In this document: positions 8,932 through 19,156 of the stretch, one piece after another
Position numbering within the stretch: the stretch's first letter is position 1
Layout: the number at the start of each line of letters is the position of its first letter
Virus record (IMG/VR): IMGVR_UViG_2663762886_000011
Length of the DNA stretch: 57,853 nucleotides
Source: a virus
Taxonomy: Duplodnaviria; Heunggongvirae; Uroviricota; Caudoviricetes
Strand: one strand, 5' to 3'
Translations under genes and position numbers: made by a program
Notes under the pieces: generated by a model
The model's database searches: none
Told to the model about the DNA's origin: nothing
Seen by the model: the letters and a program-made list of their open reading frames with translations, nothing else

Positions 8932-9789
8932 ATGCTGTTTGTGCTTATTCTAAGCCACCGGGCAGCATCATACGGGGCAATTATGGCCGCATTACCATAC
9001 ATGCAACTGTACATAGCTGATTACCTGGCTGACACCATGCATTTGTCAGCAGAGGAGCATGGTGCGTATTTGTTGCTGATGTTCAATTACTGGCAAACAG
9101 GAAAGCCAATACCTAAAAACAGGCTGGCAAAAATTGCCCGTCTGACTAACGAGCGATGGGCTGATGTTGAACCATCCTTGCAGGAGTTTTTTTGCGATAA
9201 CGGCGAGGAATGGGTGCATCTTCGGATTGAGGAAGATCTGGCATCAGTCAGGGAAAAATTAACCAAAAAATCAGCCGCAGGAAAAGCATCTGTTCAGGCC
9301 AGAAGAAGCAGAAAGGAAGCAGATGTTCAAACAAAACAAGAGAGAAATTTAACAGGTGTTCAAACAGATGTTGAAGTGGTGTTTGAACATGATGTCAACA
9401 CAAAGGCAACTAATAAAGATACAGATAAAGATCTAAAAACAGATCCCCCCCTAAATCCCCCCCGGGGGAATCGAGGTGTCAAAAAGTTTGACCCTCTGGA
9501 TATTGCTTTGCCGAACTGGATTTCTGTCTCGCTTTGGCGTGAGTGGGTTGAATTTCGCCAGGCATTGCGAAAACCGATTCGAACGGAGCAGGGCGCTAAC
9601 GGGGCGATACGGGAACTGGAAAAATTCCGTCAGCAGGGTTTTACACCTGAGCAGGTGATTCGACACAGCATCGCCAATGAATACCAGGGCTTGTTCGCGC
9701 CGAAAGGTGTTCGACCTGAGACGTTACTCCGACAGGTTAACACCGTCTCGTTACCGGATAGTGCGATCCCGCCAGGCTTCAGGGGGTAA
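8932..9789 (+). CDS. ydaU: DUF1376 replication-associated protein YdaU
   Basis: 285-aa ORF; alternative start at MAALPYMQLYIADYLADT (8983) fits the DUF1376 N-terminus. Confidence 0.75.
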   Translation: MLFVLILSHRAASYGAIMAALPYMQLYIADYLADTMHLSAEEHGAYLLLMFNYWQTGKPIPKNRLAKIARLTNERWADVEPSLQEFFCDNGEEWVHLRIEEDLASVREKLTKKSAAGKASVQARRSRKEADVQTKQERNLTGVQTDVEVVFEHDVNTKATNKDTDKDLKTDPPLNPPRGNRGVKKFDPLDIALPNWISVSLWREWVEFRQALRKPIRTEQGANGAIRELEKFRQQGFTPEQVIRHSIANEYQGLFAPKGVRPETLLRQVNTVSLPDSAIPPGFRG

Positions 9790-9795
9790 CTGACC

Positions 9796-10542
9796 ATGAA
9801 AAATATTGCGACAGGCGACGTTCTTGAACGTATCCGCAGACTGGCCCCGTCACATGTAACCGCGCCATTCAAGACGGTAGCGGAGTGGCGCGAGTGGCAA
9901 CTTTCCGAAGGCCAGAAACGTTGTGAGGAGATCAACCGTCAGAATCGTCAGTTGCGGGTGGAAAAAATTCTGAATCGCTCAGGCATCCAGCCATTGCACC
10001 GCAAATGCTCGTTTTCGAATTACCAGGTGCAGAACGAAGCGCAGCGATACGCGTTGAGTCAGGCGAAATCCATCGCTGATGAACTGATGACCGGGTGTAC
10101 AAATTTTGCGTTCAGCGGAAAACCTGGTACCGGGAAGAACCACTTAGCGGCAGCTATCGGGAATCGCCTGCTGAAAGACGGTCAGACAGTGATTGTGGTT
10201 ACCGTGGCTGATGTTATGAGTGCCCTGCACGCCAGCTATGACGATGGGCAGTCAGGCGAAAAATTTTTGCGGGAACTATGCGAAGTGGATCTGCTGGTTC
10301 TTGATGAAATTGGCATTCAGCGCGAGACGAAAAACGAGCAGGTGGTGCTGCACCAGATTGTTGATCGCCGGACAGCGTCGATGCGCAGCGTGGGGATGCT
10401 GACAAACCTGAACTATGAGGCCATGAAAACATTGCTCGGCGAGCGGATTATGGATCGCATGACCATGAACGGCGGGCGATGGGTGAATTTTAACTGGGAG
10501 AGCTGGCGTCCGAATGTCGTCCAGCCAGGAATTGAGAAGTAA
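9796..10542 (+). CDS. ydaV: DnaC/IstB-like replication ATPase YdaV
   Basis: Walker A GKPGTGKN and Walker B LLVLDEIG motifs in translation. Confidence 0.85.
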
Positions 10543-10564
10543 TTTTTACCGGGAGGAAATTTTT

Positions 10565-11326
10565 ATGGAGACTGTTTTTGACGCACTGAAAGCAATGGGA
10601 AAAGCCACATCCATAGAACTTGCTGCGCGACTTGATATCAGTCGTGAAGAAGTGCTGAACGAACTATGGGAACTGAAAAAAGCTGGTTTCGTTGATAAAA
10701 GCGCGTACACCTGGCGTGTGGCTGATAACAACGTTCAGCAGGAACAGCCAATGCAGGCAGAACTGCCGGAAGAAACCACCACGGCAACTGTAGTGAAAAT
10801 CTCAGAGTGCGATTTAACCGCGACGATTGAACAACGCGGACCACAAACGGCGGATGAACTGGCTACGCTGTTCGGTACAACATCCCGCAAAGTTGCTTCA
10901 ACGCTGGCAATGGCAATCAGCAAAGGACGCCTGATTCGCGTAAACCAGAACAGTAAATTTCGTTACTGCATGCCGGGCGATAATTTACCAGCAGAGCCGA
11001 AAGCTGCATCGGTAGCGGAAACTGATGGTAAAGCCTTTCCTCAGCCAGCCGGTGTTGCGTTACCAGTACAGGAAGCGGCAACACAGGAAGATATTAAAAC
11101 AGAAACTGTGGCGGACATTGTGCAGTCGCTGCCATCGTTTACTGAAACGCAAGCGGATGACCTAGTTTTACCATCGCTGCATATGGCAAACCGCGAACTG
11201 CGTCGGGCGAAAAATCATGTCCAGAAGTGGGAGCGAGTCTGCGCCGCGCTGCGGGAGCTGAACAAGCACCGGGATATTGTCCGACAGATTGTCGATTCCT
11301 CCAGTCGTATTGTGTCGGAAAAGTGA
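10565..11326 (+). CDS. Tandem winged-helix protein (ydaW position)
   Basis: Start at [13 protein letters not shown]...; two HTH-like segments. Confidence 0.5.
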
Positions 11327-11341
11327 TTGCCGGGGGCGCTT

Positions 11342-11758
11342 ATGGCAAAAGTATTTACACAGGAAGAGCGTGAAAAAATTAAGGAGCAGGTTGTTGAGTT
11401 GGTACGCCAGAGTGGGCGCGAGACGTTAAGGCAACTGGAGGCCAAGACAGGTGCGACAAGATATCTGATGAGCATTCTTGCCAGAGAGTTGGTTGCCAGT
11501 GGCGATGTATACAACTCTGGTTACGGGTTATTCCCGTCTGAACAGGCGCGTAAGGATTGGAAAAACGCCCGCAAAAAACTATCCAGGGCAAAGGTGAAAA
11601 AAACGGTTGTGGTTGATCCTGACCTTATCTGGTCATTACCAGACGGAGAAATACGCCGCTATGACAGGCGTCAGAACATAATCTGTCGCGAGTGCCGGAA
11701 GAGTGAAGTTATGAAACGTGTACTGGCATTTTATCAAGGAAATCTTCGGTATTTATAG
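11342..11758 (+). CDS. Hypothetical phage protein
   Basis: ORF with backbone-like GC content; ATG at MAKVFTQEEREK... Confidence 0.5.
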   Translation: MAKVFTQEEREKIKEQVVELVRQSGRETLRQLEAKTGATRYLMSILARELVASGDVYNSGYGLFPSEQARKDWKNARKKLSRAKVKKTVVVDPDLIWSLPDGEIRRYDRRQNIICRECRKSEVMKRVLAFYQGNLRYL

Positions 11759-11896
11759 ACGTTACTAGATCAAAGAGCATTAGTTCATATGTAAATTGAC
11801 ATTTTTCTGGCACAGGGGAGAGCTAGCGTGGTTGTCCGCTTTGTGCCAATAGCGGACATTGCTGGCTCATGGTATGTTAGTTTAAGGAGGCAGGTT

Positions 11897-12919
11897 ATGC
11901 CCTGTATTTCGCTGTGGTATAATAGTTGCGCAATTGATACAAGGGAGCGTTACATCGTGAAAATTGTTTTCGAGGTTAATGGAAAGAAAGTTCCACTAAA
12001 ATCTTTAAAATACATAAGCAAAAAAGATCAACTCGAAGTAATGAAAAACTGGTTCTTTGAAAACTTTGAAGATCCGGCAAATGCTTGTCCGTATGAAAGT
12101 AGAGAAGGTGGCTATGCTTACATATATGGCGGGCCGTATGATGCGAGCGAAGAACTACAATCCATCTTCGGTCAATATGTTAAATCTGAGTATATTGAGG
12201 AATTAGTAGATGAATTACAAACACAATGTTTTGACTGGTCTGGAAACTCAAATAATATAGATGATTGGTACGATGATGATATCTACGACGCTGTAACGTC
12301 TTCCGGTAATCCGTATTTAAAATTCATTGATAATATCGATAAAATAAAAAAACTTGCAAAAGATAAAACTGAACAACAGCAAAAAAACCACTTGCTTAGT
12401 TTGCTCTACACGAATGTTATTACAGCTTTGGAAACGCTTTATGTTGAGCTATTCATTAATTCTATAGAGAAAGATGATGTCTACATAGCCAATTGTATAG
12501 AAAAAGGTAAGACTGAATTTAAAGTAAGCAAAGATATTGCTGCGTTGCCTTTCAAGGGTGAACCCATCGAGAAAATTAGGGGAGAGCTAATCAGGTCAAT
12601 CAAGGAACACTTGATCAGTGCAAGCTGGCATAGCACTAAAAAGGTAATCGACCGCTATGAAGCTACATTCGATATAAAAGTACAAAAAGACTGTCCGATA
12701 GAAGCTATTGAATTGGCAACCCTCAATCGAAATCACTTAGTGCATCGTGGTGGAAAGGATAAAGAAGGGAACCTCGTAGTGATTACAGACCAGGATCTTG
12801 AAACGCTGATTGAAAATGCATCGAACCTGGCAATTATGCTCTACAACAGTTTAAATGTAGCAACGAATAAAACCACCATTTTGCAACCAGATGACAAACC
12901 GTTCATTCATGAATTTTAA
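11897..12919 (+). CDS. Candidate defence protein A with HEPN-like Rx4H motif, about 340 aa
   Basis: AT-rich ORF; SD TAAGGAGG 6 nt before ATG 11897 (alternative GTG 11957 preceded by AAGGGAG); C-terminal LNRNHLVHRG matches HEPN R-x(4-6)-H. Confidence 0.6.
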   Translation: MPCISLWYNSCAIDTRERYIVKIVFEVNGKKVPLKSLKYISKKDQLEVMKNWFFENFEDPANACPYESREGGYAYIYGGPYDASEELQSIFGQYVKSEYIEELVDELQTQCFDWSGNSNNIDDWYDDDIYDAVTSSGNPYLKFIDNIDKIKKLAKDKTEQQQKNHLLSLLYTNVITALETLYVELFINSIEKDDVYIANCIEKGKTEFKVSKDIAALPFKGEPIEKIRGELIRSIKEHLISASWHSTKKVIDRYEATFDIKVQKDCPIEAIELATLNRNHLVHRGGKDKEGNLVVITDQDLETLIENASNLAIMLYNSLNVATNKTTILQPDDKPFIHEF

Positions 12920-12934
12920 TAGCGCAGGTCATAC

Positions 12935-13936
12935 ATGGATATTCGCACACGAAAGACAAAATTTTTAGAGTCGTTAGATTCAACTGAAGTGATACGCAAA
13001 GCAGTAAGTCTCGCTATAGATTGCATTATTGATAATCATAATAGTAATGAAGATACCCCCTTAGTTATTACCAGCTATGATGATCTCTGTAGAATCCAGG
13101 TGCTAAATTATGTACAGGAGTTTTGCGAAGCTGCATTCCCTGATATGGATGAATATTACTTTAGTCCTAACATACTTCGCATCAACGGCAAGACTAGTGA
13201 AGAAGCTTGTATTAACTTAATTAAACTCTTAAGAAGTACAAAAGGCATGCTATTCTGGTCCGATGCCCCATCGTGGTTCGCTAGCCTCCCCGACGGATTA
13301 TTCCATGTTGTTAACATTGATCAAAAAATCGTTACTCGCGGCCTTAATAAGAAAAACTCTAAGCCGACAATAATCAATAAAGATTACAGTGTAGATACAC
13401 TACTATCAGAGCTATTTTTGAATGGCGCACACATGGAGCAACCCAACGTACACAACGTTTCTGAGGGAAACATGAAGTTCTATGATGAATGCCATGCTGG
13501 ATTAATCAGACCAATACCCGCTCCAATAGGCGCGTCATACGATGAAGAGATCACAATTAATTCTCCAGATTGGCAAAAGCTCGCGTGTGTAGCTTTACGC
13601 CGCTATCAGTCGAAGGAATGTCATGACGGAATGCAATGGGATACAACCGATCATGGTTGGACTGATGTAATCGCGTATCCATTCGTCGAAGAAATACAAT
13701 CAATGGATAATAGTGGTTATCGACAATGTTTAGTTGGGCTGGTCACAATAAACAATTCAAATGCAAATTCTCCGTACCTATCTACCGTTTGGATACATCC
13801 ATTTTATCGCAGGAGAGGGTTATTAAGTAAGTTATGGCCAAAATTACAAGAGTTATATGGAAGTAACTTCGAAATTGAGCGACCTAATGAAAATATGAAA
13901 GCATTTCTGAAAAGTGCGAAACACGCAGATTACTAA
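12935..13936 (+). CDS. Candidate defence protein B with GNAT-like C-terminal motif, 333 aa
   Basis: AT-rich ORF 15 nt downstream of protein A; C-terminus STVWIHPFYRRRGLLSKLWPKL resembles GNAT motif A. Confidence 0.6.
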   Translation: MDIRTRKTKFLESLDSTEVIRKAVSLAIDCIIDNHNSNEDTPLVITSYDDLCRIQVLNYVQEFCEAAFPDMDEYYFSPNILRINGKTSEEACINLIKLLRSTKGMLFWSDAPSWFASLPDGLFHVVNIDQKIVTRGLNKKNSKPTIINKDYSVDTLLSELFLNGAHMEQPNVHNVSEGNMKFYDECHAGLIRPIPAPIGASYDEEITINSPDWQKLACVALRRYQSKECHDGMQWDTTDHGWTDVIAYPFVEEIQSMDNSGYRQCLVGLVTINNSNANSPYLSTVWIHPFYRRRGLLSKLWPKLQELYGSNFEIERPNENMKAFLKSAKHADY

Positions 13937-14496
13937 TTTATGAATCAGTCTGTGGAGTTAGGGTTGGTGTGAACAAGTAGGGTAAGAGCCTCAACGTGAT
14001 GCTATGCCGACCTGCTCCCTGAGAATTCACACAGAAGGCTGCTAGCAATGTCTGCAGATCGCTCAAAGCGGACTAAAATGTTGGCTTGTTTCTGACTTAG
14101 AGCATTTAAGGAAGTGCTGGTGGTGACTGGTTGTTGTGTTCCATTTCTACAGAATAAAATCACAGAAACTATACCCAATAGTTGTATTGAATCACTGACG
14201 AGACAGCCTCATATTTATCAGGACTGGTGTGCGTCTAATACAGGGGGTTGTCGTGCTGGTTCTCAAATGTGCGCTGGCTATTGCGGCTGTAATGGCAATT
14301 TATTGTCTTGCTGTTGTTCTTATGGAGCGGCTTTCTGATTGATTACATACTGGCTAGAAAAAAGGTGTTACCTTGGTTTATCTTTGTCCGGCAAGGTGCG
14401 CTCATTAATCTTAAGTAAATTTATTGCTCAAGTATTCAGATTACTTCTTATGGTTGAAGTCTCCTGTCAATGTAGAACCAATATATTTACAAAAAT

Positions 14497-14556: not shown

Positions 14557-14895
14557 CTATTTTTTGGTGCTATAGACTTTTTCGCCCGAAAAGTCTGGAG
14601 CGACCCAAAAGTTAATATTAAACTGAGCATCATCGCTTAGTTCAACACGGTGCCAGTATTGTGGTGGGCTTGTTGCAAAAGCGCCAGCATTAATGACTAC
14701 TTTTATCTCCGGTTCAGTAGCATTCTCATCAGTAAAACCATAATATGTTACAGTGCCTTCCATTACGCACAACTGCCCAAAAACACCTGCTGCTGTATTA
14801 TGATGTGTTAATAACGCTGAAGGTACGTTCTCTTTTGTGAAGAACGGAGTTGAGCGTTTGATTACCCAATCTTTAGGAATTCTCTTGTGTGTCAT
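14557..14895 (-). CDS. YeaR-like DUF1971 protein, 112 aa
   Basis: Translation (RSTPFFTKENVPSA...CVMEGTVTYYGF...PPQYWHRVE...FNINFWVAPD) parallels E. coli YeaR; SD GGAGGAGGTGG before ATG 14895. Confidence 0.75.
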   Translation of the reverse strand: MTHKRIPKDWVIKRSTPFFTKENVPSALLTHHNTAAGVFGQLCVMEGTVTYYGFTDENATEPEIKVVINAGAFATSPPQYWHRVELSDDAQFNINFWVAPDFSGEKVYSTKK

Positions 14896-14910
14896 AACCA
14901 CCTCCTCCAA

Positions 14911-14933
14911 AACATGCATTAAAAATGCATCTT
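14911..14933. promoter_or_regulatory. NsrR-type operator (11-1-11 inverted repeat)
   Basis: AACATGCATTA-A-AAATGCATCTT immediately upstream of the yeaR-like SD; TTGACA on the minus strand about 20 nt further upstream. Confidence 0.5.
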
Positions 14934-15708
14934 TTGGAGGGTTATGTCAAGCTGTTATGAAACACATAATTGATATGTTGATTAGAGGAGAAGATAGAAT
15001 AAATATGGTTGTTTTTCGTATAACTATTTGTTTTACTTTTAGTTTATGCATTCTGTGTGTTAGGAATAAGTTATTAAAGTTTAATCAAAAAATCTCGATG
15101 TAGTCCACATAGATTACTGTTACTGAACCTTATTGTGTGTATTAGTTGTGTTCTGAAATTTCAGCTTAATTATTTATGATGTATTTTTTAACGATAAATA
15201 TTTTCCCAGGATACCTTTACTGTGTATATAAATAAATTATATACGCATAAATAATGTAAAGGCGTCCTTTTAGATATATCTTATCAAATGTTAATGACTT
15301 GAGTGGGAAATATGATTCCAGCAACTTATCATGTGGCTACTTTATAAAAATAATGCCCATATAAAACAACAAGCGAAAAGGATTACGGATAAAAAAGGAG
15401 CGAGATGTGCGAACTTGTTATTTTCCATGTTTAACCACCTTAAATAATTGATGATGACGGGATGATTGCATCTGTAATGCTTTTATTGAAATGTTATGAT
15501 AAAAAAGAACTTTTGCATAACATTAAAATGTAATTTATCTAATCGTTTTTAATAATAAGTGTCGTATTTCTATCCTTGTACCAGCTATTTGATATGTAGT
15601 GTTTGTTCATGCTATGTGGGGCTTTACACCATAGCCAGTTTATTTATACTTTATTCGTCAGCCTGAACAACTGGCATCTGCTGCGCTGCGCCATCGAGAG
15701 ATTGAGAA

Positions 15709-17595: not shown

Positions 17596-18122
17596 GGTTT
17601 ATTGTATGCCAAATGATTATTAAAAAGGTTGTGTTAATAACAAGATCCGAAATAATATGCCTGCATATTTTTATCTTGCTTATATTCTGCATATTGTGCA
17701 TAGCAGGCTCATCCCTGCAATCAAAACTGTATGATGAGTATTTTTTGTTTTCCTTTTTTCCAGTCATCTGATGATGACCTGCTTCTTTTTAATCCGGATC
17801 GACATCAGTTTTTTAAGATAATTCCTGCGAGTTATATGCATAAATGCCACAAACTCCGCATTTTATGTGGTTGGGAGTTGCCGGGCGCGCAGTGAGTTTG
17901 CTAAGAAAACTCCTGCATGGTGAATCCCCCTGTGCGGTGGGGTGATACCATTAACCTTTTCTGTCGCCGACAGGTATCACGAACATTTTGTTCACCGGGA
18001 GGCACCCGGCACCATGCACTTCAATAGATTCTCTCCACATTATGGATATTCTTTCAGAATATCCCACGCAGACTTTGTGTAAATGTTAACAAATGTGCGT
18101 TTTATTTGATCTGATTCGCTGT

Positions 18123-18181: not shown

Positions 18182-18610
18182 ATGGGTTTTCGTAGCGCAT
18201 CAATTCTTACGTTGATTATTAGTGGGATTATTATCGGGTGCACTGATGCTGTATCGACAAATTATCATGACCGTACATCATATTACTCCGATAAAGCAAT
18301 AGAGACACAGTATGTGAGTTCATCTGAACGTACTTCTGATGTTAGTGAGGATATCCGTCTGTATGCCCATCAAATCAAGAGCGCCATCGAAAAACAGTTC
18401 GGGGATGCGAGTAAGTATTCAGGAAAAGAGTGTACACTGAGAATGCATATGGCCCCGAATGGCCTTCTACTGGAGGTTAAAAGAGAAAGTGGAGACCTCG
18501 ATTTATGTCGTGAAGCGATGAATGCGATAAAGAATGCTGATATACCTGCCCCCCCTTCGCCGGAAGTATATAAAGTATTTCAAAATGGGGTGCTGGATTT
18601 TAAACCCTGA
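18182..18610 (+). CDS. Lipoprotein with TolA domain III-like C-terminus, 142 aa
   Basis: Signal peptide with lipobox IIGC; C-terminal YAHQIKSAIEKQFGDASKYSGKECTLRMHMAPNGLLLEVK...CREAMNAIKNADIPAPPSPEVYKVFQNGVLDFKP resembles the TolA C-terminus including both Cys. Confidence 0.8.
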   Translation: MGFRSASILTLIISGIIIGCTDAVSTNYHDRTSYYSDKAIETQYVSSSERTSDVSEDIRLYAHQIKSAIEKQFGDASKYSGKECTLRMHMAPNGLLLEVKRESGDLDLCREAMNAIKNADIPAPPSPEVYKVFQNGVLDFKP

Positions 18611-18760
18611 TATTTATTGTTTTGTAATAAACGGTTTCGGCTTAGGTTTGTTCTGACACAGCTACGGCACTGAGCTAAATTTAGCGGATAGTCAGCTCTG
18701 AGCCAGTGGCGGACGTAACAACTACTATTGCTGAGATTTTAATGGATTGAGGAGCAAGAA

Positions 18761-19156
18761 GTGGGATTAAAGAAAATCGTTATGTTGACTTTTTGGGTCG
18801 GTTTTGTTGCGGGATGCACACCTTTACACCCTTCAGATTGCCACAAAACTACTGCTACAGGTAGTTGCAGTTCAGGACGCTGGGATGATCAGGATGAATG
18901 GGGGGCGCAAGCGCGGGGAATCAGAGCTGCAATTAATGCCAAACTTGATGAGCCGCATAACTGGAAAGGGAAAAAATGCAGGTTGCATATGGAATTCTCT
19001 CAGGATGGCACGGCGTTAAAAATATCTACCAGTAACGGTGATAAAGCCTATTGCGAAGCGATAAAGTCCGCAGCTCATAAAGCCAAATTTCCGGCCTTCA
19101 ACAATCCGGAAGTCTACAGAGATTTTCAGAAATCTGGCTTTGACATGCGAGGTTAG
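18761..19156 (+). CDS. Paralogous lipoprotein with divergent TolA-III-like domain, 131 aa
   Basis: GTG start with SD GAGGAG; lipobox VAGC; shares GKKCRLHMEF...CEAIKSAAHKAKFPAFNNPEVYRDFQ pattern with the upstream lipoprotein. Confidence 0.7.
   Translation: MGLKKIVMLTFWVGFVAGCTPLHPSDCHKTTATGSCSSGRWDDQDEWGAQARGIRAAINAKLDEPHNWKGKKCRLHMEFSQDGTALKISTSNGDKAYCEAIKSAAHKAKFPAFNNPEVYRDFQKSGFDMRG

Follow-up and report, generated by a model that had tools for sequence, protein, structure and literature searches.

Do two adjacent genes in a mobile insertion form a toxin with its obligatory partner, or do they only share a vehicle? This question is raised by a locus in IMG/VR record IMGVR_UViG_2663762886_000011 (Caudoviricetes), a 57,853-nt stretch of DNA referred to below as the window, whose source is a Rac-type prophage. 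An earlier reading of the sequence alone (the original prediction) described the locus as an AT-rich moron with two co-oriented open reading frames (ORFs), 11897-12919 and 12935-13936, separated by a 15-nt spacer, and proposed that they encode a toxin-like HEPN RNase and a GNAT-like partner. The coordinates of the ORFs are borne out. The observations described below favor the following reading, to which a probability of about 0.58 can be assigned: the locus is a discrete mobile cargo, the product of its first gene (A) is a self-sufficient abortive-infection effector, and its second gene (B) is a separate GNAT gene that does not encode the antitoxin of A. The genes and the ends of the cassette are as follows.

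11834..11866, no strand: left terminal inverted repeat, a 24-nt hairpin GTCCGCT-TTGTGCCAAT-AGCGGAC (11834-11857) with the inner 9 nt ATTGCTGGC
11957..12919, + strand: gene A, 320 amino acids, WP_014639476.1, annotated in RefSeq as a hypothetical protein starting at 11957
12935..13936, + strand: gene B, 333 amino acids, WP_000354966.1, an unassigned N-terminal domain and a C-terminal GNAT domain; RefSeq hypothetical protein
14041..14073, no strand: right terminal inverted repeat, GCTAGCAAT with the hairpin GTCTGCA-GATCGCTCAA-AGCGGAC, a degenerate copy

The acquired unit is the segment 11834-14073, about 2.2 kb in length and bounded by inverted repeats, which is sharper than the interval 11760-13940 given originally. 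Homology to about 15 unrelated contexts starts at 11833/11834 and stops at 14069-14074 or, where it is interrupted by an indel at 14010, sets in again at that point. The separate acquisition of the two genes as a moron is supported. The argument from base composition holds in part. The GC content is 0.34-0.43 across 11800-14000 as compared to 0.48-0.54 across 9400-11600, and the AT-richness continues to the right of gene B until about 15600 (GC 0.27-0.44), so that the contrast with the backbone, claimed for both sides, is valid on the left side only. The prophage can be recognized by the RalA small RNA at 1557-1735, which is the antitoxin of RalR (Rfam match of 225 bits, above the gathering score), and strain FORC_081 carries an identical locus at ttcA together with intR, xisR, recET and kilR. 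The cassette is located in a cargo-exchange slot of this lambdoid prophage, directly 3' of a DUF977 gene. The cassette is carried by 209 of the 5426 complete E. coli genomes (about 4%), including the extraintestinal pathogenic and neonatal meningitis strains UTI89, S88 and IHE3034 and the type strain ATCC 11775. The phage GenBank collection contains no copy of it, the match there being limited to the first 100 nt of the flank.

Protein A combines two domains, the coordinates of which are given together with the predicted active site (residues are counted from GTG 11957).

12029..12331, + strand: PF18870 (HEPN/RES N-terminal domain 1), A residues ~25-125, putative sensor or regulatory domain
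12332..12847, + strand: HEPN domain of the RiboL-PSP type, A residues ~126-297, with PF18735 matches in relatives
12728..12745, + strand: Rx4H motif R258-N-H-L-V-H263 (RNHLVH), predicted to be catalytic

The HEPN assignment, which had been proposed from this motif, appears sound. In an alignment of 72 sequences reaching down to 26% identity, R258, H263 and R264 of RNHLVHR are invariant, as are E159, W224-H225 and, in the N-terminal part, P45, G58-G59-P60, F71 and W94. The AlphaFold2 model of A has an all-alpha HEPN fold with a mean confidence score (pLDDT) of 87. Homologs of A form 122 clusters, and the gene is under purifying selection with a ratio of nonsynonymous to synonymous substitution rates (dN/dS) of 0.13-0.21. 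PF18735 (RiboL-PSP-HEPN) has no match in A at E<=1 and matches 36 of the 72 relatives; its cut-off of 28.4 bits is exceeded by three of them (P0099, P0101 and P0061), the last of which is 59% identical to A over its full length. Profile searches of A against PDB sequences returned nothing real, NCBIfam searches gave no informative match for A or B, and in PHROGs both proteins are present as families without assigned function.

The N-terminal domain of A is found in many other proteins. An exhaustive search with A residues 1-116 (a word-indexed search gave mainly fragments) resulted in 1402 cluster representatives, several of which pass the PF18870 cut-off. Elsewhere, PF18870 is fused to PIN_8 RNases, KAP NTPase, GmrSD_N, DUF3644 and RES. 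Attachment of one domain to a variety of toxic effectors is typical of sensor or regulatory modules, and PF18870 can be regarded as a putative module of this kind shared by these proteins. One of them, aRES (RES + PF18870), is a validated stand-alone defense protein without a partner gene, which is reported to arrest growth and deplete NAD+ when the cell is infected (Osterman et al., bioRxiv 10.64898/2026.01.28.702374). Like A, aRES, which is found in defense islands of Enterobacterales, has two domains including PF18870 and no operon partner. PF18870 matches 66 of the 72 relatives of A, A itself being sub-threshold (22.2 bits for a cut-off of 27.4), and no neighbor recurs in 78 loci of A. The two proteins differ in their effectors: the RES NADase of aRES makes ADP-ribose-1''-phosphate, whereas A has a predicted HEPN RNase, the target of which would be RNA and not NAD+. 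Since the RES domain (PF08808) has no match in A and its C-terminal domain is HEPN, A is not an aRES but, by its domain composition, a HEPN-effector sibling of it.

The ability of a HEPN protein to act alone has a precedent in HepS, a solo abortive-infection protein of the Gifsy-1 prophage that works without a partner, is triggered by the tail-tip protein J and targets tRNA anticodon loops (PMC13043305). HepS and A are both solo HEPN proteins found in the same kind of prophage slot, although HepS is without PF18870 and has no detectable sequence relationship to A.

The claim that B is GNAT-like is also in agreement with the structural prediction, and the second glycine of its motif A is replaced, as had been described.

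13502..13933, + strand: GNAT fold, B residues ~190-333, from the AlphaFold2 model and the BFVD and PDB searches
13808-13825, + strand: motif A of B, YRRRGLL, R292-x-x-G295-x-L297, with R292 invariant and G295 conserved in 70-90%

The final position of the motif (R292-R-R-G295-L-L297) is a leucine, as compared to Q/R-x-x-G-x-G/A of GNAT proteins. The model of B has a pLDDT of 90. Acetyltransf_1 (PF00583) gives 19.9 bits for a cut-off of 20.7 and matches 19 of 47 relatives of B, with the best E of 6e-6. Homologs of B form 66 clusters, mainly gammaproteobacterial, and the gene is under purifying selection (dN/dS 0.28-0.39). It is thus credible that B is a GNAT-type acetyltransferase. The N-terminal ~190 residues have no match, the BFVD and PDB structure searches having matched the GNAT part only, and a profile search of B against PDB sequences, which include solved GNAT toxins, found no real similarity. 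GNAT folds are carried on mobile elements both by the type II toxins TacT, AtaT and KacT and by the integron defense cassettes Brc113/BrcP, and a single GNAT cassette, Brc113, can give phage resistance. In comparison with these proteins, B is twice as long, carries an unassigned N-terminal domain of ~190 residues and has no ribbon-helix-helix antitoxin as a neighbor.

The relation between A and B can be judged from their distribution. The two genes could form an obligate two-component system, in which both are needed and B controls the RNase A, with acetylation of A, or of the RNA or tRNA that it targets, as one possible means. Such control would resemble that of the HEPN-MNT type VII toxin-antitoxin systems, where the partner nucleotidyltransferase AMPylates the toxin and is always adjacent to it. 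The tight operon is consistent with this idea (the 15-nt gap of the window is replaced by a 4-nt overlap in L094 and L108), and so is the distribution of B in 46 metagenome loci, in which every B of at least 73% identity with enough upstream DNA has A directly upstream, with the sole exception of locus L098. Furthermore, versions with at least 95% identity occur in complete E. coli genomes as 209 A and 209 B, the identities of A and B fall in step across the cassettes, which points to co-divergence within the clade, and a stand-alone relative of B in Marinomonas is located beside an Abi_2 (HEPN-type) gene. The idea is nevertheless unlikely to be correct. A toxin and its antitoxin are expected to remain neighbors across their family. 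In a set of 82 A neighborhoods, 80 of which were fetched from a scan of genomes (352 species with an A relative) and two of which are E. coli loci, B adjoins A in four, all near-identical copies, whereas 78 have no B within 8 kb; the latter include A relatives with 63-76% identity in Aeromonas, Yersinia and Pantoea. No other conserved partner of A is found among the 1220 neighboring ORFs, since their biggest cluster covers three loci, and such clusters are transposases and integrases. None of the B relatives with 56% identity or less is associated with A, and another 20 E. coli genomes carry a divergent A without B (~75% nucleotide identity, WP_032328110.1). Nor is the loss of an antitoxin expected to be tolerated, and in E. 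coli SF-173 (L366) an IS1A insertion interrupts B, and an intact, identical A remains behind its putative promoter. Thus, in contrast to the MNT partner, the neighbor of A is a GNAT protein that is missing from most A loci and dispensable in SF-173, and the siblings aRES and HepS both act alone. The A-B pairing represents one stable association that is confined to a single lineage, each gene being autonomous elsewhere. This is evidence against an obligate toxin/antitoxin logic and against the toxin and partner of the original prediction. As judged by these sequences, B is probably not an antitoxin for A, and A probably needs no B; a modulatory link between them is conceivable.

That the cassette serves in defense, as the original prediction had it, is likely from its genomic context. 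In one metagenome contig (L101) the cassette directly follows Gabija (GajA, E 9e-205; GajB, 7e-123), with other cassettes beyond, and in L095 it is flanked by Eleos (LeoA, 5e-164; LeoBC, 4e-154) on one side and, with one cassette in between, by Gabija on the other. Solo A genes are found on the ends of prophages and on small integrative elements: the Serratia gene adjoins a prophage integrase, the Dickeya gene has a ParE/helix-turn-helix pair and an integrase as neighbors, and the E. coli gene is carried by a tRNA-Arg element. Solo relatives of B are often located near AAA_13, T5orf172/DUF4041, HerA-like or Abi_2 genes, and one is in a plain housekeeping locus. The adjacency to Gabija and Eleos, the sites of solo A and an intact Rx4H HEPN joined to PF18870, a domain whose other fusion partners are all nuclease, NADase or NTPase effectors, make it improbable that the cassette has no anti-phage role. 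In that case it would be a selfish addiction module or a moron that is beneficial in some other way; A, for instance, might act as an RNase in RNA processing or stress, and B might acetylate small molecules or antibiotics. Such a role would agree with the content of other cassettes of the same type, which include transporters, regulators, hydrolases and an APH-type phosphotransferase, and with the scan against PADLOC-DB v2 that had been suggested as a check on the original prediction: neither A nor B matches any system model there (best E for A, 0.01; none for B). A third possibility, that both ORFs are spurious or decaying, would be suggested by the AT-rich DNA, where long ORFs arise by chance, and by their purely hypothetical names in RefSeq; it is refuted by conservation, as A and B have more than 120 and 66 homolog clusters, respectively, across phyla or classes, confident structure predictions, dN/dS well under 1 and invariant catalytic residues.

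Several points weigh against the favored reading, in which A is self-sufficient and B is a separate gene. The knockout of B in SF-173 is known from one genome, in which A could be silent. Within its clade the A-B pair is as stable, in its 209:209 ratio, tight spacing and co-divergence, as a functional pair would be. A itself is under the Pfam cut-offs for both of its domains, and PADLOC has no model that fits either protein. Finally, the cargo of the cassette family is not defense alone, for it includes BCCT and MFS transporters, LysR and HAD+NUDIX, and location by itself is therefore no proof of a defense role.

For a cassette with a self-sufficient A, the course of events during infection can be outlined from homology and context. 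The genes would be transcribed from the promoter of the cassette. The PF18870 domain of A would either sense the infection or keep the protein inactive. Upon the trigger, the HEPN RNase, whose Rx4H site is likely to be shared between the subunits of a dimer, would cleave RNA of both host and phage, possibly tRNA, and growth would cease before the invading phage finishes its cycle. B evolved apart, joined A in one enterobacterial/Aeromonas lineage and is probably co-transcribed with it. It is probably a second, independent conflict gene or a dispensable modulator.

The novelty of the system claimed in the original prediction has to be qualified. Both proteins are in PHROGs, the domains of A are Pfam families, and aRES with the same N-terminal domain has been validated; the HEPN version and B themselves are candidates. 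Literature searches by accession, domain pair and boundary sequence returned no description of A, B or the cassette ends.

Three other loci have a different arrangement of A or B. In the exceptional locus L098 (L098:1382-2957, metagenome OLIH01000023.1) A is cleanly deleted, the DNA corresponding to window 11934-12855 being gone, and B stands directly behind the conserved -10 element. In E. coli MB56 (L367), A is enclosed by two copies of ISSen4, which separate it from the promoter region on one side and from B on the other. E. coli CE12-1 carries a divergent solo A (L141:6979-7920) on a small integrative element at tRNA-Arg/yfdC, which also has an integrase, serine recombinases and a rolling-circle replication protein.

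The start of gene A and its upstream signals were compared in an alignment with the corresponding DNA of this cassette in 11 further contexts. The ORF has possible starts at 11828, 11897 and 11957 and ends at 12919 (+ strand). The original prediction had taken ATG 11897 as the start, preceded by the Shine-Dalgarno sequence TAAGGAGG at 11883-11890, and had listed GTG 11957 as an alternative, preceded by the following elements.

11915-11923, + strand: extended -10 element TGGTATAAT, TGGTAYAAT in every aligned cassette from different contexts, putative promoter of the cassette
11941-11947, + strand: Shine-Dalgarno sequence AAGGGAG, which precedes GTG 11957 and is kept as AAGG(R)(R)G in the alignment

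TAAGGAGG is present in the window, and neither it nor ATG 11897 is kept in the homologous cassettes, where ATG is replaced by ATA in three (L097, L100 and L101). The GTG, its Shine-Dalgarno sequence and the -10 element are conserved, and the family members, 310-320 residues in length, all start at the same point. GTG 11957 is therefore most likely the true start, which gives a protein of 320 residues; a longer isoform made from read-through transcripts in E. coli is conceivable. As a consensus promoter scan of the region is at chance level overall, the function of the -10 element is inferred. The same scan found no intrinsic terminator 3' of B, and an Rfam search found nothing for the leader or the hairpins.

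The ends of the cassette lead to a wider family of mobile units. Each end consists of a 24-nt hairpin, GTCCGCT-N10-AGCGGAC, and 9 inner bases, 33 nt in total. The left and right copies are mutually inverted, the reverse complement of the left copy differing from the right at two loop positions, and an inverted repeat of 46 nt (I1, 72%) pairs the left end with 14041-14086. The stem motif occurs three times in the window, with 0.10 occurrences expected. Thermodynamic support for single-stranded folding is mixed: the left copy has a z of -3.4, and the right copy folds poorly (z 0.4). The left flank with the hairpin is found in 2267 of the 5426 E. coli genomes, where the slot, after DUF977 and before hokD, holds other cargo: AbiH with an uncharacterized gene, NUDIX+HAD, or BCCT/DUF2254/LysR/GGCT/MFS. 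The BCCT unit is also present on a plasmid, next to a hairpin. No empty slot was found among 69 flank-to-flank intervals, and the cassettes have no linked integrase.

Scans of IMG/VR for the cassette ends gave at least 119 and at least 120 contigs for the two orientations. The 224 IMG/VR loci listed (L142-L365) comprise some 100 different cassettes, 0.45-6.8 kb in length, with 137 cargo protein families, and cassettes are seen in enterobacterial prophages, chromosomal islands and one plasmid. Pfam searches of 104 cargo representatives identified SIR2_2, RelA_SpoT, Macro+DarT of DarTG, RES, AbiH, YobI-ATPase, AAA_13 and Pycsar-type TIR as well as MFS, LysR, BCCT, SDR and more. Cassettes also form arrays, as in L101 (92-6673), L095 (4865-8822), L097, L100 and L093. 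Where two cassettes abut, the junction consists of a hairpin, a spacer and an inverted hairpin; the spacer has a conserved CTTCAGCTCAGT core and is 18 nt long in 38 of 61 junctions.

These ends can be read as protein-recognized recombination sites. They resemble the ends of integron attC cassettes and Acinetobacter pdif modules, which are likewise small, defense-rich cargo units with short dyad-symmetric ends that occur in arrays and in many contexts, their cargo being promoter-carrying or promoter-less. Unlike these, the cassettes described here have no RYYYAAC...GTTRRRY boxes, no linked intI and no XerC/D-like 11-6-11 site, and their genes occur in both orientations. An integron attC reading of the ends was rejected on account of the missing boxes, the two gene orientations and the lack of intI in the arrays. 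Transposon ends with target duplications are not supported either, as no target-site duplication is found and R and L are regularly spaced 18 nt apart.

It is tempting to combine these observations into a tentative, somewhat doubtful picture, in which a cassette-exchange system with 33-nt inverted-repeat ends and a junction of about 66 nt (24-nt hairpin, 18-nt spacer, inverted hairpin) has the A-B unit among its cargoes. In Enterobacterales, a recombinase or the recombination functions of phages would move the cassettes between lambdoid prophages, chromosomal islands and plasmids, and the cassettes would serve as a library of defense genes (Gabija, Eleos, DarTG, SIR2, RES, AbiH and HEPN) and other morons. 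In this library, A would be the first protein of the aRES-type sensor family that has a HEPN effector. Such a recombination system would explain how morons and defense genes move between prophages, and the two 24-nt motifs would be a sequence handle for mining new defense genes; uncharacterized cargo is plentiful. If A defends, PF18870 would be a portable infection sensor that drives an RNase as well as a NADase, and comparison with aRES would provide a direct route to the trigger of A. The presence of the cassette in ~4% of complete E. coli genomes, pathogenic strains included, means that it would affect the host range relevant to phage therapy. The stable yet non-obligate A-B pairing is a test case for the co-transcription of independent defense genes.

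Several further observations concern the cassette family. The commonest cargoes among the cassettes listed are a 269-residue uncharacterized protein (19 cassettes; for example L234:10157-10966) and a HAD + NUDIX hydrolase pair (21 cassettes; for example L340:5695-6339 with L358:5608-6246), both of which are candidates for phage-related functions. In L101:6650-7773, the final hairpin of the array borders directly on a transposase gene of the IS110 family, beyond which lie a P4-type integrase fragment and ychF-pth. Elements of the IS110/IS1111 type are known to target hairpin-like repeats. In the window, a third copy of the hairpin is present at 18691-18714 (GTCAGCT-CTGAGCCAGT-GGCGGAC, two mismatches) between two TolA-like ORFs (18182-18610 and 18761-19156) that precede the lysis genes; it could be the boundary of a further cargo.

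Other features of the window lie outside the cassette. A DUF1971/TehB-family gene just downstream of it (14557-14919, - strand) is probably another moron. The region 14800-15600 between the cassette and the DUF1367/DUF1364/DUF1133 block has a GC content of 0.27-0.31 and is nearly free of ORFs; it has no Rfam match at the gathering score, and S88-type prophages have hokD at the equivalent spot. The small RNA STnc100 is located at 17885-18071 (Rfam, 87 bits, above the gathering score). A 26-nt string, GTCTGCCCTGGCTGAGTGAGGCCGAC, occurs three times (39435, 56303 and 56782), flanked each time by the same 15 nt, which points to repeated segments in the late, possibly tail-fiber, region.

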